From a virus (lineage: Duplodnaviria; Caudoviricetes), in the IMG/VR virus record IMGVR_UViG_3300020045_011112, positions 1 to 31,967 of that record: a DNA stretch of 31,967 nucleotides; one strand, given 5' to 3'. Both the position numbers and the translations under genes were made by a program. Every line of letters starts with the position of its first letter. The stretch's first letter is position 1. The notes beneath the pieces were generated by a model that was not told where the DNA came from, ran no database searches, and was given only the letters and a program-made list of their open reading frames with translations. Positions 480 to 31,967 of this stretch are shown here, piece by piece.

Positions 480-782
480 TTAACTAAAATTATAACACTC
501 TCCATTCTTAATAATTGTGGTCTTAAAAGGCAGATCATCCACCGGCACTTGCTGTATGGTACTGATTAAGATGTCTGAACCGGTGAAAACAACATATTTT
601 ATTCCATTCAGCTCAATCTGAAGATGTAGGCATTTGCCTGATCTGTTTTTGGGGTACTTAGTATCTTCAACCTTGTAGGCCAGCACAATAATCGGCACAT
701 TCAGGATCTTAGCCATCTTGATTTTATCTCCTGAGAACGGCTGACACTTGTTTTCGATACCTAGTTCACTAAAGGATCTCAT
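480..782 (-). CDS. 100-aa protein translationally coupled to the DGR RT; candidate DGR accessory factor
   Basis: Its ATG (780-782) overlaps the RT stop as TAATG; beta-rich sequence, not Avd-like. Confidence 0.7.
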   Translation of the reverse strand: MRSFSELGIENKCQPFSGDKIKMAKILNVPIIVLAYKVEDTKYPKNRSGKCLHLQIELNGIKYVVFTGSDILISTIQQVPVDDLPFKTTIIKNGECYNFS

Positions 783-1744
783 TAGCACACCTTTCTTATT
801 AAATTACAACTGTTTGAATATTTCAACCAGCCCCAATACGAAGCCAGGGACCGGTAATTATCAGGGCTTTGTACGGCTTTATACTTCTTAATTGCCTTGA
901 TGAATCGCTTTTTTATTGACTTCCTTATCAGCGTGTGAGTCGGATAAAATACGAACCCCACAAAGTCAACACCGGTATCAACCGGGAATACTCTCCAATC
1001 CTTTTTAACGGTCAATTTAAGGGCTGATAAGTAGTCGGTTATCTCAATAAGAAGGGCATGCAAAAAGGCTTTATCGTGGTGGAATATCACCATGTCATCA
1101 CAGTATCTGAAGTAATGGCGCACGCCCTTAACCTCTTTGATCCAGTGATCAAACCCGGATAGGAACAGGTTGGCGAATGACTGGCTCAGGTAGTTACCAA
1201 TGGGTAATCCTTTTGCAGAATCAATGATCTCATCAAGCAGCCATAACAGCTCATTATCTTTGATTTTGCGCCTGATAATGGATTTTAGCACCTCATGATC
1301 CACTGAAGGGTAAAACTTCTTCACATCGAGCTTGAGCACATAATCAGCACCCGGTTGGCGTATGGCATATTTAACCTTTTCAGCTGCACTATGGATGCCG
1401 CGGCCCTTAATGCATGAATAGGTGTCAGCAGTAAGGGTATTGTAAATAATCGGCTCAATAATGTTCATAATGGCATGATGCAGGATACGATCCGGGTAAT
1501 AGGGTAGCCGGTATATTTCCCTCTCTTTACCGCTATCCACAACCTTCTTAAAAACGTGATATTTACTCGTTTTAAAGGTCTTATTAAGCAGCATGTTTTG
1601 CAGCTTCAGGAGAAGTTCATCTCTATTTTCATCAAACGCCTGAATTTCGCGTTTACACTTTTTACCTAACCTCGCTCTTTTATCTGCCAGTGTCAGGTTT
1701 TCGATTGAGATGATTTTTTCAAACAGGTTGCCGTGTCTTTTCAT
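782..1744 (-). CDS. DGR reverse transcriptase (320 aa from MKRHGNLF)
   Basis: Motifs KEREIYRLPYYPDRILHHA, LKLDVKKFYPSVDH, GLPIGNYLSQ (DGR-type SQ), YFRYCDD, GVDFVGF; lies next to the TR. The ORF-track extension to 1969 is the TR read in frame. Confidence 0.95.
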   Translation of the reverse strand: MKRHGNLFEKIISIENLTLADKRARLGKKCKREIQAFDENRDELLLKLQNMLLNKTFKTSKYHVFKKVVDSGKEREIYRLPYYPDRILHHAIMNIIEPIIYNTLTADTYSCIKGRGIHSAAEKVKYAIRQPGADYVLKLDVKKFYPSVDHEVLKSIIRRKIKDNELLWLLDEIIDSAKGLPIGNYLSQSFANLFLSGFDHWIKEVKGVRHYFRYCDDMVIFHHDKAFLHALLIEITDYLSALKLTVKKDWRVFPVDTGVDFVGFVFYPTHTLIRKSIKKRFIKAIKKYKAVQSPDNYRSLASYWGWLKYSNSCNLIRKVC

Positions 1745-1845: not shown

Positions 1846-1957
1846 AGTATAGCTGAGAACCGATATTCGTATTCGCATCCGAAGCCTCGTTATTCGAGTT
1901 AACGTTACCGAAGCCTGCATTCGCGCCATTATTCGCATTACCACTAACGATCGGAGC
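1846..1957 (-). repeat. DGR template repeat (TR)
   Basis: 112-bp ungapped match to 2037-2148 and to 29700-29811; every mismatch is at a TR adenine (T on the + strand); rich in AAY codons; 30 adenines counted. Confidence 0.97.
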
Positions 1958-1996: not shown

Positions 1997-2031
1997 CTCG
2001 CTTACGCGAGAGATCCGGGGTCTTAAGACCC
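1997..2031 (-). other. Hairpins just 3' of VR1 (candidate DGR target-recognition stem-loops)
   Basis: CTCGC-GTAA-GCGAG (1997-2010, minus strand) and the 14-bp palindrome GGGTCTTAAGACCC (2018-2031) spanning the stop codon. Confidence 0.6.
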
Positions 2032-3312
2032 AAAAAAGCAAAGCCGAGAACCGATAGACGTAAACGCATCCGAAGCCTCGTGATACGAGTAAACGGTACC
2101 GAAGCCCGCAGGCGCGCCATAAACCGCATTACCACCAACGAACGGAGCATACCAACCCGCAGTACCAACTGGTTGAGGTGTATAGAAGTAGTCGGGCCAT
2201 TGGCCACTACCACCAGTGGCAGAGGGTAACAGATCTCCATGCGCGCCAAAAATCACGCTTGATACCCATCCAGAACTATAGCTCAGGCTCAATACTGCCC
2301 GTGCCTTGCCTAAATTTACCGCCCCGTCTGAAAAATAATTAGGATTATCAATGATGTACACATAGGAGGCTGCCGGAGTTACGCTGTGATAAATGCTTAT
2401 TCCGTCCATCCACTCCCAGATGTCGCCAAATGGTGACTCAATGCCCCTGTAGCGAGGTATCTTAACCTCCATATTGGTGGTTAGTACGGTCGTAGTCCAG
2501 GCAACCTCACCGTTATAATTACCCAGGCTATTGGACTGGCCACACGGAGCAACCGGTCTATAGCCGTTTTGATCCCAATTGGCCAAATTGGTTAATCCGT
2601 TACCTAGCCCACCAGTTTGATATCCTGATCCATCCGGACTTCCAACGGCCGCCTGACAGTCACGATTTGCGTATTCTATAACATACAGCCAAAATTCAGT
2701 CTTCCAAGCCTGGTAGCTCAACATTGACCAGTTAGCCCCGCGGTTCCGGGCATAAACCCTAAAGTTAGTCCGGGAGATTACTGTAGCCGGATAACCAGCA
2801 TAAGTGGCGTTATTATCAGCACCATAATAGTCAGCCGAGGTATTTACCACACTGGATAACTTCAAAGTTGTCCGGTTTAGTGCTGCCTTATAGGCTGATA
2901 TGTAAATCTTTGGCACATACTTAAAGCCCGCTTTATAGGTTAGGCTGAACTTTACATAATTCCAGCCGGCCACCGTTTCAAAAAATTCATAGTGAGCCGG
3001 AATTTCTACCATTACCTGGCCTTCAGCCCCGGTCAAATTAGAGGCTCCACCGGCTTCCTTTGCGGTCCAATCTGTTGGATTAAGATAATAGTTAACTACG
3101 CCATTGTCAAGCAACAGACAGCCTCGCATGAGGTTCTGAATCGGCAAATTGGTTGCCGCATGGATGGTTAAATCATCATCCTCAGCGATGCGGGTGACCG
3201 CTGGATTTGTTGATGTTATCTCATACTTTATACCATACCATTTATTCATGTACTGCCCTTGCGAGGCTACCCCGATGGCGAGGGTAATAAGGATAAAAAG
3301 TAGCTTTTTCAT
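2023..3312 (-). CDS. DGR target 1: C-type-lectin (FGE-like) fold, receptor-binding/tail-fibre-like protein with N-terminal signal peptide
   Basis: C-terminal VR1; GDIWEW and GSRLCF motifs typical of DGR CLec targets; located at the end of the tail module; N-terminus MKKLLFILITLAIGVASQG-Q. Confidence 0.88.
   Translation of the reverse strand: MKKLLFILITLAIGVASQGQYMNKWYGIKYEITSTNPAVTRIAEDDDLTIHAATNLPIQNLMRGCLLLDNGVVNYYLNPTDWTAKEAGGASNLTGAEGQVMVEIPAHYEFFETVAGWNYVKFSLTYKAGFKYVPKIYISAYKAALNRTTLKLSSVVNTSADYYGADNNATYAGYPATVISRTNFRVYARNRGANWSMLSYQAWKTEFWLYVIEYANRDCQAAVGSPDGSGYQTGGLGNGLTNLANWDQNGYRPVAPCGQSNSLGNYNGEVAWTTTVLTTNMEVKIPRYRGIESPFGDIWEWMDGISIYHSVTPAASYVYIIDNPNYFSDGAVNLGKARAVLSLSYSSGWVSSVIFGAHGDLLPSATGGSGQWPDYFYTPQPVGTAGWYAPFVGGNAVYGAPAGFGTVYSYHEASDAFTSIGSRLCFFGS
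2037..2148 (-). repeat. Variable repeat VR1
   Basis: 19 mismatches versus TR over 112 bp, all at TR adenines. Confidence 0.97.
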
Positions 3313-3830
3313 AATATAATTTGAATGTTAAATTGTTGCGATGCAAATGCGCCCGGTATAGGCTCAATGGTGTATCTGTTATCGTTGCCCGATCGACCCA
3401 TGAAAGGCCATGCTAACCAGCAATGCGGTACGGTTAAATTAACAGCAGCGAGTAGCCGACCATCCAACCGCCACATGAGAGTATCGGTATCTAGGATCAG
3501 TTCATACCATGTATCCGGTTGTAATTCGACTTTAAACTGGCTTAACTCATGCAGTTTGTATAAGCCTGATTTGATCGGTTCGTAATAGCGAGGCCACAAA
3601 AATACCTGATTGCCCTCTTTGCCGATTCCCCAATTTGCACCGCCCTCATGATAGTTTAACTTTCCCAATGTCATCAGTTTGCAGCCGTATGGCTTCGGCT
3701 CTGTCAATACATCACAATCCCACCAAGTGCTGTCTAACTTCATTCGGAATTTCAAACGACTGGAAAACCACGGTATAGCGGGTAACTGCGGTCTGAATAT
3801 GTTTTCTCCTTGCTTTACTATTAGTTTCAT
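3309..3830 (-). CDS. Hypothetical tail-module protein, possibly ConA/LamG-like beta-sandwich (start MKLIVKQ)
   Basis: TAATG coupling at 3828-3832 and ATGA overlap at 3309-3312; Trp-rich with motif TWYELILD...WRLDG. Confidence 0.6.
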   Translation of the reverse strand: MKLIVKQGENIFRPQLPAIPWFSSRLKFRMKLDSTWWDCDVLTEPKPYGCKLMTLGKLNYHEGGANWGIGKEGNQVFLWPRYYEPIKSGLYKLHELSQFKVELQPDTWYELILDTDTLMWRLDGRLLAAVNLTVPHCWLAWPFMGRSGNDNRYTIEPIPGAFASQQFNIQIIL

Positions 3831-4879
3831 TATTTTGATGCTGAATAATTCATATATACACATCTTGCCCCGGTTGTTAATGCATCCCACGTAGTTTGAT
3901 CTTGTTCCTCCGGTATGCTGGTTCCATCATTATAGTACCGACATTTAAAATTGGAGGTTGTCCAAACTTGGTTGCCTATTTTAACGCAAGAGTAAACATT
4001 ACCGTCATAATCCGTAACCGTAGAAACTAATGTAGCATCGTCTTTAATTAACCGAAGAGAGGCGCCTTGATAAGTGTACATACCAACCTCTCTTATAGTA
4101 GGATTATAAGCCTCAAGAAACTTTACTAGTGTTATACTTCCGCTCAAATAAGTTGTATGATACAAGCCTTCCTCTGTAATATATTTAAACGTGTTTGAAT
4201 TATGGCTTCTAGCTCCTGATGGAGTTGCGGAAAATCCTGTTGAATTATTTGTTGACGGATCGTTTCCGGGCGCTCCTGAAAATACAGAATAAGACCAATT
4301 TGTGGTAGTGCAAATAGATTTAGCACTATTTGATACTGCTGTTATAAGTTCATCCCATTCAGCTCTGCTAGGAACGTGCCAACCTGTGGGCGCTATTTCC
4401 TTTTCTTTAACTCCATCCCCGTTTGTGTCTCCGTTAATAGCGAACCAATTATATAAATATCCATTTCCTGAAGAACCCAAAGGCCCGCTGATTTGACGAA
4501 TTTTGCTATTATATACATCTATAATTCGTTGCCTATACCACACATTTCCATATTCAGTTAAATAATATCCATTTGCCAAATAATCACAAGAAGTTCCAAT
4601 ACCATACCAAACAGTATCACCATAATTAATGCCGCGAGCTTCGCTATATTCAACATACTCTTCTGTGTATTCGCCCATCACAAACCCATAGAAAGCGTCG
4701 TGTGCGTTTTGGAAAGACCCGGTGAAATTGTAGTCATCCATATAACTACCGAAATCAATAGTTATTAATCCGGTCGGGCGGCATGAACTTGCTGAACTAT
4801 GCGCCCAGAAAAAGGAATTAAATTGTGCTTGCAGATTAACACTACATACCACAAAAAGCAATAAAATAAATCGTTTCAT
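3830..4879 (-). CDS. Secreted protein with a circularly permuted Fibrobacter succinogenes major paralogous (Fib_succ_major) domain
   Basis: GYLYNWFA, APTGWHVPSRAEW, NSTGFSA, GASLRLIKD followed by TDYDGNVYSCVKIGNQVW; signal peptide MKRFILLLFVVCSVNLQA-Q. Confidence 0.8.
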   Translation of the reverse strand: MKRFILLLFVVCSVNLQAQFNSFFWAHSSASSCRPTGLITIDFGSYMDDYNFTGSFQNAHDAFYGFVMGEYTEEYVEYSEARGINYGDTVWYGIGTSCDYLANGYYLTEYGNVWYRQRIIDVYNSKIRQISGPLGSSGNGYLYNWFAINGDTNGDGVKEKEIAPTGWHVPSRAEWDELITAVSNSAKSICTTTNWSYSVFSGAPGNDPSTNNSTGFSATPSGARSHNSNTFKYITEEGLYHTTYLSGSITLVKFLEAYNPTIREVGMYTYQGASLRLIKDDATLVSTVTDYDGNVYSCVKIGNQVWTTSNFKCRYYNDGTSIPEEQDQTTWDALTTGARCVYMNYSASK

Positions 4880-4880
4880 A

Positions 4881-7412
4881 TTAATTAAGGTTTTTAGTTC
4901 CTGCCCATGCTAATATATTTCCATCATAATACCAACTATAAATATCTGTTGTCGTGCCGCCTGAACAGATCATCTGATTGGCTGCCGACCTGATCGAAGG
5001 GCTTATTTTATTAGTGTATCCTGCCAGAGTAATTGTATAGGCAGTTGCCGGGTTGGTAATTGTCAGGTTGCCACTCATTCCGGCCACCAGATTACTCAGC
5101 GTGACGGTTGTATTGGCCCCGATTGTCATGGTGGCGTGCAATCCTGCCGATACGTCATAGGTGCGTGAAGTAGTACCCGTCAATGCTTGCACGCCGGGTT
5201 TGTCGGCTTTCAGTGCCAGTGCGCCAAATACTGCGTCTTCATTCGGAGACCGGGTCGTAACCCCGTCAGTGATATAGGGCGAAATTATTGATACATCATT
5301 AACCTGGTAGGTTTTTCCGGTTGGAATATTAACTCCCGTTGGAGTGGTTCCAAATTGCTGGTGGTTATCAGCATCGAAAAAAGAATGATAGTTACCGCTA
5401 CTATAATAAACCATTCCATCATTCCACTTAATATATCCTTCGCCACCATTACCAAACACTACCTTTTTGTTAGTATTTAATGCCAGGTCACCGGATAAAC
5501 GACCACCAAACACTGGCAGTCTTGGAATGTCTGTACTATCACCCTGTCTTTTTGTTGCAAAAGCGCTAAGATCAGCATAGGCAGCACTACCCGCCAATAA
5601 CGCAAAATCTCTGATAGGATCAGCGGCTAACCACGGGGTAAATATTGGATCGACCTCGCTGGTTAGGTAGATGCCCGTGTGATTGTGACTGTCGAGGGAA
5701 TAGGATCGTAAATCGCTGATCTGACTCTCCGTAATGCTGATGCCTGTTGATTTATTCCAAGCGCTGAATATTGGATCTGTCTCACTGGTTAGGTAAATAC
5801 CTGCGTGATCATGTGAGGCCGATGCAAAATCACTTAATCTGGCATAGGCAGCAGACCCAAGCAACCTGGTTAAATCTGATACAGGATCCTTAGCTAACCA
5901 CGGGGTGAATATTGGATCAACCTCACTAGTTAGATAGGTACCCGTGTGATTATGGCTGTCGAGGGAATAAGATCGTAAATCGCTGATCTGACTCTCTGTA
6001 ATGCTGATGCCTGTCGACTTATTCCAAACAGTAAATATTGGATCAACCTCACTGGTTAGGTAGATGCCCGTGTGATTGTGACTGTTGAGGGAATAGGATC
6101 GTAAATCACTGATCTGACTCTCTGTAATGCTGATGCCTGTCGACTTATTCCAAGCAGTAAATATTGGATCAACCTCACTGGTTAGGTAAATACCTGCGTG
6201 ATCATGAGCAGCCGATGCAAAATCACTTAATCTGGCATAGGCAGCAGACCCAAGCAACCTGGTTAAATCTGATACAGGATCCTTAGCTAACCACGGGGTG
6301 AAAATTGGATCAACCTCACTAGTTAGATAGGTACCCGTGTGATTGTGGCTGTCGAGGGAATAAGATCGTAAATCGCTGATCTGACTCTCTGTAATGCTGA
6401 TGCCTGTTGTCTTATCCCATGCGGTGAAAATCGGATCAACCTCACTAGTTAGGTAGGTGCCTGTGTGATTGTGGGTGGCGGTTGCAAAATCTGTGTCATG
6501 CTTCCCATTTAATAAATCAACATTTAAGTTGGCAACCTTTATTTGACTTGCTACACTAAAAGGCGCTCCGTTTGTTACAGACGACGTTATTGGTACAGTT
6601 ACCGCTATACTTATAATGCCAACCGTCATTTTTAAACCCGAATTAACATATAACTTTATTGGCAAGGCGTCAACTGCTGATGGTGAGCCTATTGCAATAT
6701 CTGTTCCCGGAATCCACCTAATTATGTCGCTTCTAAATTGCGTTCCGGCATACCCCGACCAGCCGAAACCATCCATTCCGTTGATATACCCAAATTTCGT
6801 TTTGCTTTGTACTCCAATACCGTTTGATGTTTGAAATTTCCATTGCTCCAAATATGAATTATCAACGTCGGATAATAAGTTAAACCCCGAATATTTATTA
6901 TATAGAGTCCCTTTATTGTTTACTTCCAAGTAAACCTCATTATGCAATGTTGACGGGGAAATGCTTGTCATATTCCTGTCGGTAACTTCACTTCGACCCC
7001 AAATACTTACTGTTTCATTTTGATAAGCAAACTTTGGCGAAGATGATAATAGATTCCATGTACCGCCAGAACCTAAAAATGGAATAGCTCCGTATTGTGA
7101 TGATGGAATAAATAACCCTCCATTTATGGTCAGCCCCTGGTTGATCGTTTGCCCCCCAATCTTACCAGACGAAGTAATATAATCATTTGCGTCGATATCG
7201 GTTAGTACCCTTCTATGCGTTAGCGAGCTGTCTGTAAGCCAAATATCATTTAAATAATCTGTAAACTTGATTCCTCGTGTTGGATGTGTTGGTAAGGCCG
7301 TGAGCGGATTGAGCTTAATCGTATCCACGATTATTCGCTTTTCATAAATCTGTCCGAAAGTTAAGTTCACAATCGAACTGGCCACCAACGCCAGAAGAAT
7401 TACTTTTTTCAT
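4881..7412 (-). CDS. Tail-fibre-like repeat protein with HxH motifs and signal peptide
   Basis: Seven 42/47-aa repeats starting H(N/D)H; VANLNVDLLNGKH fibre-type motif; follows the tail hub gene. Confidence 0.75.
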   Translation of the reverse strand: MKKVILLALVASSIVNLTFGQIYEKRIIVDTIKLNPLTALPTHPTRGIKFTDYLNDIWLTDSSLTHRRVLTDIDANDYITSSGKIGGQTINQGLTINGGLFIPSSQYGAIPFLGSGGTWNLLSSSPKFAYQNETVSIWGRSEVTDRNMTSISPSTLHNEVYLEVNNKGTLYNKYSGFNLLSDVDNSYLEQWKFQTSNGIGVQSKTKFGYINGMDGFGWSGYAGTQFRSDIIRWIPGTDIAIGSPSAVDALPIKLYVNSGLKMTVGIISIAVTVPITSSVTNGAPFSVASQIKVANLNVDLLNGKHDTDFATATHNHTGTYLTSEVDPIFTAWDKTTGISITESQISDLRSYSLDSHNHTGTYLTSEVDPIFTPWLAKDPVSDLTRLLGSAAYARLSDFASAAHDHAGIYLTSEVDPIFTAWNKSTGISITESQISDLRSYSLNSHNHTGIYLTSEVDPIFTVWNKSTGISITESQISDLRSYSLDSHNHTGTYLTSEVDPIFTPWLAKDPVSDLTRLLGSAAYARLSDFASASHDHAGIYLTSETDPIFSAWNKSTGISITESQISDLRSYSLDSHNHTGIYLTSEVDPIFTPWLAADPIRDFALLAGSAAYADLSAFATKRQGDSTDIPRLPVFGGRLSGDLALNTNKKVVFGNGGEGYIKWNDGMVYYSSGNYHSFFDADNHQQFGTTPTGVNIPTGKTYQVNDVSIISPYITDGVTTRSPNEDAVFGALALKADKPGVQALTGTTSRTYDVSAGLHATMTIGANTTVTLSNLVAGMSGNLTITNPATAYTITLAGYTNKISPSIRSAANQMICSGGTTTDIYSWYYDGNILAWAGTKNLN
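5550..6473 (-). repeat. Intragenic tandem repeat array A-B-A-A-B-A-B (A = 126 bp, B = 141 bp)
   Basis: First HxH starts at 6473, 6347 and 6206 (spacings 126 and 141 bp); the DNA copies are near-identical. Confidence 0.92.
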
Positions 7413-25944: not shown

Positions 25945-26346
25945 TTAATTTTTAGGGAAAACATTGTCGATAACCCATCCACATGGCAGGGCGTTATAGG
26001 TGTTCAAATAGTATTCTAAGTCGGTACGGGATAGGATCGAGGACCCTAATTCCTGACAAATCAGTTTTAATACCCGCGCCCACCAGTCCCAAAAAACAGG
26101 ACTCTCCTGGATGCGCGCAAAAACCTCGGTAACCGTGCATTTTTTAAAGGATTCACGACGCATTACATCGCCAAAAACCTCATGAAATACACTCCAACGG
26201 CCCACTTTTAAGCGAAGATGATCCATGTACTGGCACCCGCTCTCATACCACAGGTTCACCATTTGATCATCCTTCATGGCAACCTTAGTAGCCACACCCC
26301 GAACTGCCGGAGCTGCAATCCTTGCGGATATTACGACTCCAGACAT
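25945..26346 (-). CDS. Hypothetical protein
   Basis: In the operon; contains SPVFWDWW. Confidence 0.6.
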   Translation of the reverse strand: MSGVVISARIAAPAVRGVATKVAMKDDQMVNLWYESGCQYMDHLRLKVGRWSVFHEVFGDVMRRESFKKCTVTEVFARIQESPVFWDWWARVLKLICQELGSSILSRTDLEYYLNTYNALPCGWVIDNVFPKN

Positions 26347-27260
26347 GGCACTGGTTGTTTAGTTTTATACTTGATAACTTCACGAGATACGGTCCTCAGA
26401 TCCATTTGTCCGTTACGATTTACCATCTTCATGATGCTCCGGATCTCTGAGTCCTGTGTAATACCGTTAGCCGATATGATACTAACGGCCATTTCGTTCA
26501 TGATCTGCCGCTTATCATCCGGTCCACCGGCCACATGTTTGCTGGATCTCTTACCCATACGGGAAAAAATCTCAGTCCAGCCAACCTTTTCCCGTGCGAT
26601 GTTCTTTTCAATCTTCCTTCTCAGTCCATCAGCACCCACCACATAAAAGCCACAGATGCCCTCCAGGTTATTATACAGGCGCTTCAATTCAAGGAATGCA
26701 CTGTCAGCCAGATCACCGGCCTCATCCAATATAATGAGCGGATTTTCGGTCAGTTGGATGGCATAAATTGCTTCTTCCATCAGGTCATCAATGCCGTTTG
26801 ATACGCCATCCACACCAACAGCCTTAGCCAGGGCTTTCACAAAGCGACCACGTTGACGGGAGTTGGAGCAATCGATATAATAAACATGTGGGCGCTGATG
26901 AGCGTAGTTTTTGCAGGCAAAGGTCTTACCGGTACCGGCATCATCCACCAATATGGAGGTAAAATGATACTGTTGGCACACCGAAAGTTGGCGATCAATG
27001 AACTGTTTCATCGAAGTTTCAGCCGTTTTCCAACGCATTTCATCGTTACGGGTAAATCCTACAATGCGGGCTATACGAATCCACTTGGAATCACCAATTA
27101 ACTGGGCGTTTTTAACCCAGTTTTCGTGCCTGATATTCGATAAATCGGCACTGTTTAAGCCTACCGAACGAGCAAACTGAGCCTGATTCATGCCCTTTGC
27201 TCCCTGTAATTTAATCAGGGCCTGTCCGATTGCTTGTTTTTCTTTCTGATTTAAGTTCAT
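26331..27260 (-). CDS. MuB-like AAA+ transposition ATPase
   Basis: N-terminal HTH, Walker A DAGTGKT, Walker B IILDEAG, EIFSR arginine finger. Confidence 0.9.
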   Translation of the reverse strand: MNLNQKEKQAIGQALIKLQGAKGMNQAQFARSVGLNSADLSNIRHENWVKNAQLIGDSKWIRIARIVGFTRNDEMRWKTAETSMKQFIDRQLSVCQQYHFTSILVDDAGTGKTFACKNYAHQRPHVYYIDCSNSRQRGRFVKALAKAVGVDGVSNGIDDLMEEAIYAIQLTENPLIILDEAGDLADSAFLELKRLYNNLEGICGFYVVGADGLRRKIEKNIAREKVGWTEIFSRMGKRSSKHVAGGPDDKRQIMNEMAVSIISANGITQDSEIRSIMKMVNRNGQMDLRTVSREVIKYKTKQPVPCLES

Positions 27261-27287: not shown

Positions 27288-29543
27288 TTAGATCTGATCA
27301 AAGGCGTCCTGTGCGGGGTCCTTAAACGGAACCCGGGGGGCGCTTTTCAATTCAACATCATCAAAATCATAGGTCACCCGACCAACACCATTAAGCACCT
27401 GATCATACTCCTCTGCAATCTCTTCCTTTGGGTGCTTCAGATACGTATCGGTTAACTTTAGGGCATAAGGATCCATATTGGATAGATCATAACTGGTGGG
27501 ATCTACAGCAGCCCCAATTTCCAGGCGATGCTTTACATCCTTTACCGATTCTTCAAAATCAACAGCGATCTTAAGCGTTCGGGCCTTACGTTCATTATGA
27601 TGGGTTTCAGCAAAGCGATGGTCTACCGTTTTTTCAGCCTCTGATTTTCCGGCCAGTACTGCCGATTGACAGGTCAGGATATACTCTCCCTTAGGGGTAT
27701 ACAGATCGCAGTAATCAGCATCAGCACAAACATGTACCGGGAGTTGCGTGCTATGTCCGAGCATCCGGGAGATCCGATCCATGCCGGTAGTTTCATATTC
27801 GGGAATTTCATACCGGGTAACCTTCTTTTGTCCACGAATCACCCGGGTAATATTCACAAATCCACGGCCTGAACTGATATCGATATCGGTTTGATGTCCG
27901 AACAGGTAGCGACGTAATTTGTCGTCGATAGGTTTACAGTCAGGGTGTTTGAGTTCGAACAATTCGGCAGGAGTTACCCCGCTCGGCATGGGTGAGTTAT
28001 TCCAATCTTCGGCCACCTGAGAGAATTGAGCAATTACCTCCTGATAGGTTGGCAAATCTTCATTCTTAAGCACATGATCAGGGTTTGCCTGTCCCTCAAT
28101 ACCGCCTGTAAACGACGTACGAAGGAAGTTTGAACACTGCTTCAATGCCTGTTTTAGCAGTCTGAAATGAGTCTCCGCATCGTTAGCCTGGGAGTTACCC
28201 GGGGCAATGGTGCGAACGCGGTTAAATACACTATTCAAGAACGTCGTTGATACAGCACCCGTAAAGGCGCCGTGGTTATCACTCACAATCTCGAACATGG
28301 TTTGATTACCCCCGTTTTCAACGGCCATCTGTACGGCCTTATGAACCATATCAGGGGTCTCCTCATGATAACCTTCAGGTGATGGTGCCCATCCAGCGAT
28401 AAACTTACTGGCTACATCAGTAACCGTAATCACATACAGGTTCATGCGTCGGCATTTACCTTGTTTATCGTAGTATTTATACAGGAATGTTGCCGATCCG
28501 TCGGCAGCAAAAAGGCTGTGTGCGTACTTTAATTTGTCGCCAGGGACGTATGTAAGCACATGTTTACGATAATAATCCTGACCATGACGGGCCTGATCCA
28601 TCCGGATACGGGCCGGCCACCGGCTTACATGGTGATCAAATGCCCTCTCAGTTACCGGTTCAACGCCAAAATCACGGCAACTATCCACATACTGCTTGTA
28701 CATTTGAGTCTTCGATAGCTTAACGGGGCTATCTGGATTCATATATAGATAGTATATGATCTCCTGGTGAATATCAAAAGAGAGCAGTTCACCGGTATCG
28801 GGATCCATCAGTTTATTAAGACCCACCTTGAGGGCGTTATGATTACCGATATTATGATGCAACAGGTATTGACGTTGGATAACTGGATCACCTGGAAGCG
28901 CTGTAATTTTACGCCTCAGGTAGGCCGGAGAGGCAACACGCAATCCCTTTAACCCCTTTTTGATCAGGATATCGGCACAAATATTCAGGTACGTACCCTT
29001 ATTCCGTATGCCAACCTCAATCGTACGGTCGCTGATATAATAATCGTTCATCATCCGGAGCCATGCCAGGGCTTCTGATAGGTCCTGAGCGATTGAAGTC
29101 GGGTAAGTTTGAGGCGATTCAAAACGATACCAATCAGTATCAGCCTTATTAACGTATGATTTAACCATACCCTTAATGCGATCGGAAGCCGATTTTAAAG
29201 TATCCTGTTCCAGTTCTACCTCAGCAGCGTTCAGTCCTCCGAGTATTTCGGCCTCTGAAGGAAAGCGATCGCGGTACATTTGAGGGGCCTTGTTCGGAAT
29301 CCGTTTCAAATCATAAAAAAACCGACCGTTCACATGTGCCCAGCGCCATCCTTTGCCCGTGTCGGGCATGAATTTGTGGTGTTGGTATTGTGCGGAAACG
29401 GTCATTTTATATCGTCTTCTTAAGTCTCTGAAATATTCTTCACTAACCTCGCACACCTGCCTTACCAGCTCCTGGCTTACCCAAATGGTACGGCCGGAGG
29501 CATCGGTTTTGATCAGGATATCGGCAGGGTTGATGTGCATCAT
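27288..29543 (-). CDS. MuA-like DDE transposase
   Basis: FAADGS, VTDVASKFIAGW, VSDNHG and ANDAETHF catalytic triad; upstream of the MuB-like gene. Confidence 0.9.
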   Translation of the reverse strand: MMHINPADILIKTDASGRTIWVSQELVRQVCEVSEEYFRDLRRRYKMTVSAQYQHHKFMPDTGKGWRWAHVNGRFFYDLKRIPNKAPQMYRDRFPSEAEILGGLNAAEVELEQDTLKSASDRIKGMVKSYVNKADTDWYRFESPQTYPTSIAQDLSEALAWLRMMNDYYISDRTIEVGIRNKGTYLNICADILIKKGLKGLRVASPAYLRRKITALPGDPVIQRQYLLHHNIGNHNALKVGLNKLMDPDTGELLSFDIHQEIIYYLYMNPDSPVKLSKTQMYKQYVDSCRDFGVEPVTERAFDHHVSRWPARIRMDQARHGQDYYRKHVLTYVPGDKLKYAHSLFAADGSATFLYKYYDKQGKCRRMNLYVITVTDVASKFIAGWAPSPEGYHEETPDMVHKAVQMAVENGGNQTMFEIVSDNHGAFTGAVSTTFLNSVFNRVRTIAPGNSQANDAETHFRLLKQALKQCSNFLRTSFTGGIEGQANPDHVLKNEDLPTYQEVIAQFSQVAEDWNNSPMPSGVTPAELFELKHPDCKPIDDKLRRYLFGHQTDIDISSGRGFVNITRVIRGQKKVTRYEIPEYETTGMDRISRMLGHSTQLPVHVCADADYCDLYTPKGEYILTCQSAVLAGKSEAEKTVDHRFAETHHNERKARTLKIAVDFEESVKDVKHRLEIGAAVDPTSYDLSNMDPYALKLTDTYLKHPKEEIAEEYDQVLNGVGRVTYDFDDVELKSAPRVPFKDPAQDAFDQI

Positions 29544-29625
29544 TTTTAATTAGTGCCCCGGCGGGTTCCGATGTCGACCGCTGGCTGATGGGTTGGATCC
29601 GGGGCTGAGGGAATTGAAAGGAGAA

Positions 29626-29991
29626 CTAGGATAACAAGTACTGTTCGTACAGGGGCAAAAACGTCCGTCCTGCGTATTCCGCCAACGCTCTCGTTTTATA
29701 GCAAAGCCGAGAACCGAGAGCCGTAATCGCAGCCGAAGCCCCGAGAGTCGAGTAAACGCCACCGAAGCCCGCATCCGCGCCATGATTCGCAATACCACTA
29801 ACGATCGGAGCATAGAACCAGGGGAAGTAACATCTTTCATCAGCTTTAGGTAGCCATCCTTCATTGAGGTGTTTAGCCAGGAAAAGAAGTTTAATTTCAG
29901 CCTCAATACGTGGGCGAAATTCAGCAGGAACAGCAGTTAAATCAGGCATTTCGATGCCCAATTCTTCAAAGGTTTTTGGTAATTCAGTCAT
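29626..29991 (-). CDS. DGR target 2: 121-aa cytoplasmic early protein with an internal variable region
   Basis: Contains VR2 in the same reading frame as VR1 (APIVSG...GSRLC), followed by ~23 invariant residues; no signal peptide or TM segment. Confidence 0.88.
   Translation of the reverse strand: MTELPKTFEELGIEMPDLTAVPAEFRPRIEAEIKLLFLAKHLNEGWLPKADERCYFPWFYAPIVSGIANHGADAGFGGVYSTLGASAAITALGSRLCYKTRALAEYAGRTFLPLYEQYLLS
29700..29811 (-). repeat. Variable repeat VR2 (remote target)
   Basis: 19 mismatches versus TR over 112 bp, all at TR adenines. Confidence 0.96.
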
Positions 29992-30715: not shown

Positions 30716-30913
30716 CTAGGTCATGTCGGATACACTCAGTACAGCCAGCACCTGAGATGCCTTAATACGAATTGCCCTGGTTGTTTTAGTATCGCGCAAA
30801 ACCTTGTCTCTCAGCACATCAGACACATACCTTTGGGAGCATCCGACCGCGCCGGCAATGTTGCTTGAGTTGCGTCGTAAAATTTTTTTTTCTGTATCAG
30901 AATATTTTAACAT
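30716..30913 (-). CDS. Ner/Cro-like HTH regulator
   Basis: IAGAVGCSQRYVSDVLR HTH; first early gene, divergent from the repressor. Confidence 0.8.
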   Translation of the reverse strand: MLKYSDTEKKILRRNSSNIAGAVGCSQRYVSDVLRDKVLRDTKTTRAIRIKASQVLAVLSVSDMT

Positions 30914-30988: not shown

Positions 30989-31732
30989 GTGATTATAGAT
31001 AGAATTAAACAGTTTATTGATTATCTTGGTGTTAGTAACAACGAGTTCACCAGGACTGTAGGTCTATCTAATGGATTTTTAACAAGCGGGGCTAATAATA
31101 AGCGTTCAATTGGATCAGATATCATAGAGAGAATTCTATGTCAATACCCGCAATTGGATCCAATGTGGATTTTAACCGGTAACGGTTCAATGATAATTTC
31201 AAAAAGTGTAAATAATGTGAGCATTTTAGAGGACGGTGAAAATGCTCACAAAAATGCTCACAACTTAGTGCCAAAACAAAAAGTACACAAAACGTTAGCA
31301 TTGGCAGAAGATTCAGCACCGTATAATTATTCACGCAACTCTGCAAATTTATTCATACCATACTTACCCTCCCGGACGTTTTCCTTTATAACCACAGAGC
31401 CAGACTTGACCCAGTTTGAGACCTATCGTATACCCGGCCTTAGGAACGCTGATTTCCTAATGCCGTACTATGGTGATGATATGCACCCAACGGTATCGGC
31501 AGGTAATATTATAGCAGGTAAAATCGTAAAGAAAGCGCCACTGTACACCTGGGGAAGGGTTCACCTTTTTGAACTAGAGGAAGTGGGGGTTATTATGGGA
31601 CGGCTCAGGCCCGGATCAGAGGGTCATACTGTTAGGTGTGAGCCTGAAAATCCATCATTTCAAGCAATAGAGTTTCCGGTTGAAAATATAATCGCGATTG
31701 CCATGCTGATGGCAGTGATTAAAATCCTGTAG
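30989..31732 (+). CDS. CI-like repressor: HTH plus S24-like domain lacking catalytic Ser/Lys
   Basis: FTRTVGLSNGFL HTH, LDPMWILTGNGSM, and C-terminal GDDMHPT...GRL...ENPSF. Confidence 0.88.
   Translation: MIIDRIKQFIDYLGVSNNEFTRTVGLSNGFLTSGANNKRSIGSDIIERILCQYPQLDPMWILTGNGSMIISKSVNNVSILEDGENAHKNAHNLVPKQKVHKTLALAEDSAPYNYSRNSANLFIPYLPSRTFSFITTEPDLTQFETYRIPGLRNADFLMPYYGDDMHPTVSAGNIIAGKIVKKAPLYTWGRVHLFELEEVGVIMGRLRPGSEGHTVRCEPENPSFQAIEFPVENIIAIAMLMAVIKIL
31204..31287 (+). repeat. Inverted repeat, left arm (inside the repressor linker)
   Basis: 84/84 identity to the reverse complement of 31884-31967. Confidence 0.95.
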
Positions 31733-31883
31733 AATTATGCACAATCGCATAGTTGTTTTGTATCAATTGTTACATTTAAGGGAATTTAAGTAGAAGCCAT
31801 TGCACCCAAAATTAGAACCTGATGCACACATCCTTAATAACGTTACCCACTGGTTTACAGTGGAGTTAATTAATAATCACTTT

Positions 31884-31967
31884 TGTACTTTTTGTTTTGG
31901 CACTAAGTTGTGAGCATTTTTGTGAGCATTTTCACCGTCCTCTAAAATGCTCACATTATTTACACTT
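31884..31967 (-). repeat. Inverted repeat, right arm (truncated by the window end)
   Basis: Reverse complement of 31204-31287. Confidence 0.95.

Follow-up and report, generated by a model that had tools for sequence, protein, structure and literature searches.

Phage DGRs have classically been seen as host-range devices acting on tail fibres. In these elements a mutagenic cDNA is made from TR RNA, with errors at adenines, and replaces the VR. Non-adjacent DGR targets are common in prophages (Wu et al. 2018, PMC5758913). In Quimbyvirus the second target, ORF80/84, is distal and apparently non-structural, with methyltransferase genes and a tRNA ligase gene in its vicinity (Benler et al. 2021, PMC8008677). 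Toutatisvirus has a second target, DUF6273, that belongs to the core genome and lies ~17.5 kb from the TR (Egorov et al., bioRxiv 10.1101/2024.10.15.618418), and further two-target phages have been described (PMC8143477). In four inducible gut prophage species a second VR is found far from the RT cassette, and this distal second VR has been read as part of a phage-host arms race (Dahlman et al. 2025, PMC12629997). The survey of Roux et al. (2021, PMC8144416), which could not see remote targets, lists the target cluster PC_00007 (‘Phage_other’) as viral, FCB-group, DGR clade 1 and non-structural or unknown, with 1.6% predicted structural. The accessible part of that paper gave no structure, neighbourhood or function for PC_00007, and it may hold a CLec call.

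The stretch of DNA analysed here (the window), a virus record of 31,967 nt, has a DGR at one end and a remote target at the other. A DGR-type reverse transcriptase with an intact YxDD motif, a TR beside it and VRs that differ from the TR at adenines only are all present, as in BPP-1-type DGRs. The RT gene (782..1741, minus strand; 319 aa from ATG, YCDD motif) matches RVT_1 (E 1.2e-17) and phrog_1423. The TR core (1846..1957, minus strand) has 30 adenines among its 112 nt, mostly in AAY codons, each of which can give 15 residues with no stop reachable, for a coding potential of ~4e16 sequences if every adenine varies. VR1 (2037..2148, minus strand) forms the C-terminus of the local target (2023..3312, minus strand; 429 aa), which matches the PHROG tail protein phrog_5302 (E 6.4e-98). 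This gene would encode the receptor-binding protein, a reading for which the tail label comes from PHROG only and which is to be set beside a signal-peptide-like N-terminus. Two 5-bp DNA hairpins 3' of VR1 (1997..2031, minus strand, at 2018-2031 and 1997-2010) are candidate target-recognition elements.

No Avd gene was found: the ORFs flanking the TR and RT have no Pfam match, and there is no room for such a gene between VR1 and the TR; DGRs without Avd are known (Wu et al. 2018, PMC5758913). Coupled to the RT stop is a ~100-aa ORF (480..788, minus strand; phrog_19665), which follows the RT in 47 of the 52 loci with enough flank (10 of these 47 ORFs had seeded the profile) and which occurs in early-region as well as tail-linked cassettes. 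A feature-level lead connects it to phi29-type SSB (score 0.92, 44% of that cluster’s members), and we regard it as a candidate accessory factor of Avd-less DGRs.

Some further observations concern the tail region. The products of three genes on the minus strand (2023-3312, 3830-4879 and 4881-7412) have basic-hydrophobic, signal-peptide-like N-termini followed by Gln, and they may be Sec-exported and not ordinary tail fibres. The gene at 3830-4879, close to the DGR, encodes a Fib_succ_major domain protein (E 6.7e-26) with no match to the window TR; DGRs of other Bacteroides phages have this domain as a target (PMC8143477). An 843-aa tail-region gene contains long direct repeats at 5556-6597, with spacings of 267, 126 and 267 nt.

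The remote target gene (29626..29991, minus strand) encodes an acidic protein of 121 aa (pI 5.35) that belongs to phrog_11581 (E 3.9e-18). Its VR2 (29700..29811, minus strand) aligns to the TR ungapped over 112 nt with 19 mismatches, all 19 of them opposite TR adenines (hypergeometric P 3.9e-14), and is identical to the TR at 82 of 82 non-A sites. VR1 likewise differs from the TR at 19 sites, all TR adenines. Of the 30 TR adenines, 12 differ in VR1 and VR2 alike, with the same new base at 8 of them and different bases at 4; 7 more are altered in VR1 alone, 7 in VR2 alone, and 4 stand unaltered in both. A preliminary description of this DNA had reported the same alignment and the same counts of singly and differently changed sites, and realignment returned both exactly. 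VR2 is in frame and covers residues 61-97; with 24 residues following, it is internal and not C-terminal, as had been described. When the window was scanned with its own TR, no VR was found beyond VR1 and VR2, and the next best site matched at 27 of 45 non-A positions. The VR2 allele retains the TR’s own 5' codons where homologues show a mutated form, which would be consistent with a recent long tract. No hairpin above shuffle level lies behind VR2 (z -0.08), whereas VR1 has two; the 3' signal of VR2 would therefore overlap the coding sequence, as in other internal VRs (Wu et al. 2018, PMC5758913). A 9-nt word common to the regions behind the VR1 and VR2 targets was considered as a cis-signal and judged to be a chance occurrence.

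The window contains Mu-type genes, namely a transposase, a MuB-like ATPase, a Mu portal and a divergent repressor. The MuA-like transposase gene (27288..29543, minus strand; phrog_310) begins 82 nt downstream of the remote target and is followed by the gene for a MuB-like AAA ATPase (26331..27260, minus strand; phrog_296). On the other side, a small ORF with a weak match to transcription regulators (30716..30913, minus strand; phrog_6831, E 0.0067) is the first gene of a putative early operon, and a CI-like repressor (30989..31732, plus strand; phrog_4) is divergent from that operon. The neighbours of the target are thus the repressor, small ORFs of no assigned function, MuA and MuB, with no methyltransferase, defence or counter-defence genes among them. 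The 82-nt gap between target and transposase contains a 7-bp GC-rich inverted repeat (29556-29605) that could be regulatory. The last 87 nt of the record (31881-31967) are an inverted copy, with 1 mismatch, of part of the repressor gene (31204-31290), probably an assembly artefact.

Taken alone, the distribution of changes between VR1 and VR2 also fits a frozen old copy of VR1, and relatives were therefore examined. Among the relatives with DNA, the nearest is a prophage (L088/L098) from a Bacteroidetes assembly, and from its 85%-identical RT we infer a Bacteroidota host for the window phage. The TRs of the two phages differ at three sites that are non-adenine in both, and in this comparison of three sites and two phages the remote VR of each phage has its own TR’s base at 3 of 3 sites. 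Four LoVEphage-type genomes vary at 20 of 30 TR-A and 0 of 89 non-A positions, and at 14 of 466 columns outside the repeat. In a 177-aa relative with 19 distinct alleles, variation affects 23 of the 26 TR-A columns and 5 of the 60 non-A ones, and between close protein homologues (69-74% identity) differences are greatest inside the VR. The proposed check of whether homologues track their cognate TR thus gave a positive answer, and the relatives exclude a frozen VR1 copy in favour of the independent rewriting that had been suggested. Judged from these alignments, the 121-aa gene is almost certainly a genuine DGR target. Diversification in the window phage itself is putatively ongoing, its signature being seen across the relatives.

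In the same relative (L088 9827-10330 and L098, G010:C123) the nearest remote target lies in a lambda-like early region and is accompanied by a near-identical DGR cassette (RT 85%, TR 106/112 nt, local target 63%, accessory ORF 90%), which suggests that cassette and remote gene may have moved together between unlike phages. A Mu-like prophage (L089, 7711-8802 and 12758-14002) has three tandem small targets before its TR and RT, and its homologue of the window’s tail-type target (39%) has no repeat match to the VR of the small target.

The flanks of 80 viral loci with homologues (the best 80 of 138) were surveyed, of which 43 have an RT in the flank; the surveyed loci include many near-duplicates and are not independent. 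The TR was chosen by position, as the best repeat per locus mostly gave tandem paralogues (273 A versus 508 non-A mismatches). In all 43 loci with an RT, a TR copy lies between the gene and the RT, just before the RT, and 546 of the 595 TR-VR mismatches fall at A, which makes up 29% of the TR. A second VR copy is found nearby in 40 of these 43 local cassettes. Where no RT lies near the gene, a distant one was sought in 11 records and found in 7, in which the TR matches the gene in 7 of 7 cases with 114 of 122 mismatches at A, and these 7 records also have a second, local VR beside the TR. The remaining 4 of the 11 had no RT match, two of them being rated 100% complete, so some copies of the family persist without a detectable DGR. 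These two (G004 and G005; L034, L038) encode the 177-aa target with a mutated VR, which would reflect either loss of the DGR or diversification in trans by another element.

The phrog_11581 family is large and belongs to Bacteroidota phages. A profile search returned 1,781 clusters (50% identity) at an E threshold of 0.001, and 562 at 1e-10. Pfam has no family for the target, with 4 scattered single matches among 133 members, and the ESM Atlas returned only viral clusters without names. No functional study of the family was found in the open-licence literature, and no mention of it was found in the accessible part of a Bacteroides DGR preprint (2024.11.15.621889). Ten records with a cassette beside a family gene, five of them rated 100% complete, were read end to end, each being scanned with its own 66-nt TR core at a threshold of at least 75% non-A identity. 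All 23 VRs found in the ten records lie in the family, 2-4 per record, in members of 122-196 aa with 23-27 residues after each VR. Since every VR is in the family and none of the 23 is in a tail gene, the family is the primary target of these cassettes and not a bystander. As far as can be read from the genomes, some phages keep a DGR for this family alone and others, such as the window phage, appear to serve the family remotely from a tail-linked cassette. On a tree of 37 scaffold rows with the VR removed, the remote label needs 4 changes, of which strongly supported branches force only 1, and a repeated origin of the remote arrangement is suggested. Twelve of the best 150 profile matches are fused doubles; together with the tandem genes, they suggest that the domain may work as a pair.

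The family also connects published reports. The LoVEphage protein AUSP0022_00089 (OY725593.1) is ~32% identical to the target over 74% of the query (E 1e-4), its gene is a remote VR of its own TR, and its neighbourhood is as in Quimbyvirus. This combination of homology, remote VR and neighbourhood makes the Quimbyvirus gene very likely the same, so that AUSP0022_00089 is very likely the counterpart of the Quimbyvirus target, Quimbyvirus being known here by its description. Three of five identifiers of genomes behind homologous loci were found in the accessible listing of Roux et al., and the DGRs listed for all three (the genomes of L015, L053 and L075) have PC_00007 targets. The window family thus appears to match PC_00007, by way of the genomes of homologous loci and not of the PC profile itself.

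Several observations bear on the nature of the protein. It has no hydrophobic N-terminus, which agrees with the earlier description of a product without an export signal; one is present in only 2 of 133 family members. A scan of 97 of the 139 listed neighbours at 20 loci (the remainder being RTs, paralogous targets and a few ORFs that are small or overlap others) gave annotations for 51 of the 97, which are replication, recombination, methyltransferase and regulatory genes, including primase, RecT, SbcC, SSB, methyltransferases, repressors and an antirepressor. None of the 97 had a structural best match, in keeping with the claim of a non-structural early gene, and the assignment of the target as a non-structural, early, soluble protein is supported by these sequence data. 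The adjacency to the transposase that the preliminary description had stressed is real in the window; its special significance did not hold, as a transposase is among the scanned neighbours at 1 of 20 loci, MuB-like genes are in the flank of 10 of 80, and the early region of L088 has a repressor and antirepressor in place of Mu genes. Because this linkage is so rare, the MuA adjacency is a property of the window genome and not of the family.

Homology between the target and the tail-type protein of the window covers the VR only (30 columns). The AlphaFold model of the target (pLDDT 77, pTM 0.71) has a long helix at residues 23-42 and two C-terminal helices. Within it the VR includes a short hairpin and is poorly predicted, with a pLDDT of 50-56 over residues 61-90; its display on the surface is therefore assumed. 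The minimal CLec fold that the preliminary description had raised was not recovered from the predicted structure, in which the VR is of low confidence: Foldseek gave 0 matches in the PDB, and the VIA-wide best match for the single domain was a small helical protein (Z 4.0, rmsd 3.2, 53 aligned). For a natural fused double, the VIA-wide comparison with solved structures gave generic helical matches only (best Z 3.9), and a PDB sequence search gave one chance match (E 0.19). In BFVD only uncharacterised proteins were matched, with phage proteins topmost and crAss-like ones included; the weaker structural look-alikes in crAss-like phage proteins hint that the scaffold may also exist outside DGR-bearing phages. 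On the model, a CLec fold is neither favoured nor ruled out and the scaffold is possibly non-lectin; the lack of matches does not by itself make the fold a new one.

We propose that the 121-aa protein is a second, remote DGR target that acts as a soluble early binder of a variable host protein, most likely one of defence or takeover, a reading to which we give about an even chance; its functional step rests on the position of the gene and on what DGR targets generally do. TR RNA would be reverse-transcribed with adenine errors and the cDNA would replace VR2 in trans, 28 kb away, at a 3' junction that would lie inside the coding sequence, without the hairpins that follow VR1. To judge from its position, the target would be expressed with the early operon behind a repressor-controlled promoter. 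A helical scaffold, probably paired, is predicted to display the 37-residue loop, which would bind a host protein that differs between strains, with variants selected host by host. In a more general and quite tentative form, Bacteroidota phages might keep an intracellular antibody-like repertoire, in which small helical non-lectin scaffolds carry a DGR-diversified loop that neutralises variable host defence proteins, and tail-targeting cassettes would have been re-wired to the family more than once.

The same targeting evidence would apply if the partner of a real target lay in competing phages or mobile elements, the protein being a hypervariable sensor or inhibitor for superinfection exclusion. 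A recognition repertoire would be in keeping with the two to four copies per genome, which are mutated differently, and DGR-diversified putative antigen sensors have been described in multicellular bacteria (PMC10907252). We consider this rather unlikely, however, since a lysogen should keep the operons that contain the gene repressed, and the protein has neither an effector domain nor a conserved effector neighbour.

Less likely again is a sensor that reads a host molecule or protein for a lysis-lysogeny or replication decision. The gene is a few genes behind the repressor in the window, between the repressor region and the antirepressor in L088, and directly after the repressor in L007, yet its position in the early region varies widely across loci (after primase, RecT or DUF3164-like genes) and the protein has no DNA-binding or signalling domain. 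We hold it similarly improbable that the protein belongs to the virion as a minor component or, like the tail target, works outside the cell as a decoy or adhesin that is released. The TR is shared with a PHROG tail protein in the window and in relatives, and PC_00007 could include uncharacterised structural proteins, as Roux et al. (2021, PMC8144416) point out. The gene is nevertheless never among structural genes in the 20 neighbourhoods scanned, its product is homologous to the tail protein in the VR only, many phages diversify this family alone, and independent rewriting would uncouple the specificity of the target from that of the tail.

VR2 as a frozen or bystander copy, taken once from VR1 or the TR and since then free of rewriting and selection, is a very improbable reading. 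Activity cannot be shown from one genome, 8 of the 12 doubly changed sites have the same base in VR1 and VR2, and no clear hairpin lies behind VR2. Against this, the non-A sites of VR2 match the TR without exception, remote VRs follow their own TR at the diagnostic sites, polymorphism in relatives is adenine-only, and 3 of the 8 shared changes are in the constant 3' end and recur in the VRs of other phages. The least probable role is the transposition-targeting factor of the preliminary description, which would steer transposition by binding MuA, MuB or target-site factors: the gene is immediately upstream of the transposase here and a family member is upstream of one in another Mu-like record (L007), but the family’s lack of ties to transposases weakens the idea, MuB-like genes are scarce in the flanks, and neither the closest relative with DNA nor LoVEphage shows Mu genes nearby.

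Remote non-structural DGR targets are already published (Benler 2021, Roux 2021, Wu 2018, Dahlman 2025), and to these the window adds one member. The additions made here are that one family stands behind scattered reports, that it is the sole target in some phages, that it is independent of the transposase, and that its scaffold is possibly non-lectin. DGRs routinely target the phrog_11581 family in early operons, and in some phages no other target is detectable. The binding partner of the family, if found, would reveal what selects strongly enough for a hypermutator to be kept, probably a defence or takeover interface of the Bacteroidota that is so far uncharacterised. Uniting Quimbyvirus, LoVEphage and PC_00007 in one family makes the question testable in LoVEphage, which is cultured and inducible. 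With ~120 aa, this soluble and variation-tolerant scaffold is perhaps the smallest fold used for DGR display, and it may be a non-lectin one.

Among described systems, BPP-1 of Bordetella (mtd-avd-TR-brt) and Hankyphage p00 share with the window an RT, a TR and an adenine-specific VR, and Hankyphage p00 is, like the window phage, transposable, a Bacteroidota phage with an active DGR (PMC12135933). In BPP-1 and Hankyphage, as far as they are described in the sources available, only the tail fibre is diversified, whereas the window also has an internal VR in an unrelated scaffold. BPP-1 further has Avd and a C-terminal CLec VR, whereas no Avd match lies beside the RT of the window, and VR2, with its 24 following residues, is not at the extreme C-terminus as in the CLec-type targets Mtd, TaqVP and FGE. 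The second target of Toutatisvirus, in the available account, has its VR at the C-terminus and a domain in common with the structural target; in the window only the VR is shared between the two targets. The second VRs of the prophages of Dahlman et al. are reported near counter-defence genes, unlike that of the window. The Quimbyvirus target has been called a C-type lectin (Benler, PMC8008677), whereas the window target has no CLec match, and the gene of Quimbyvirus and LoVEphage lies among methyltransferases, whereas that of the window lies in front of a transposase in a Mu-like phage. LoVEphage is like the window in that one TR is common to a tail-region gene and a distal gene, the latter with an internal VR and a helical tail.
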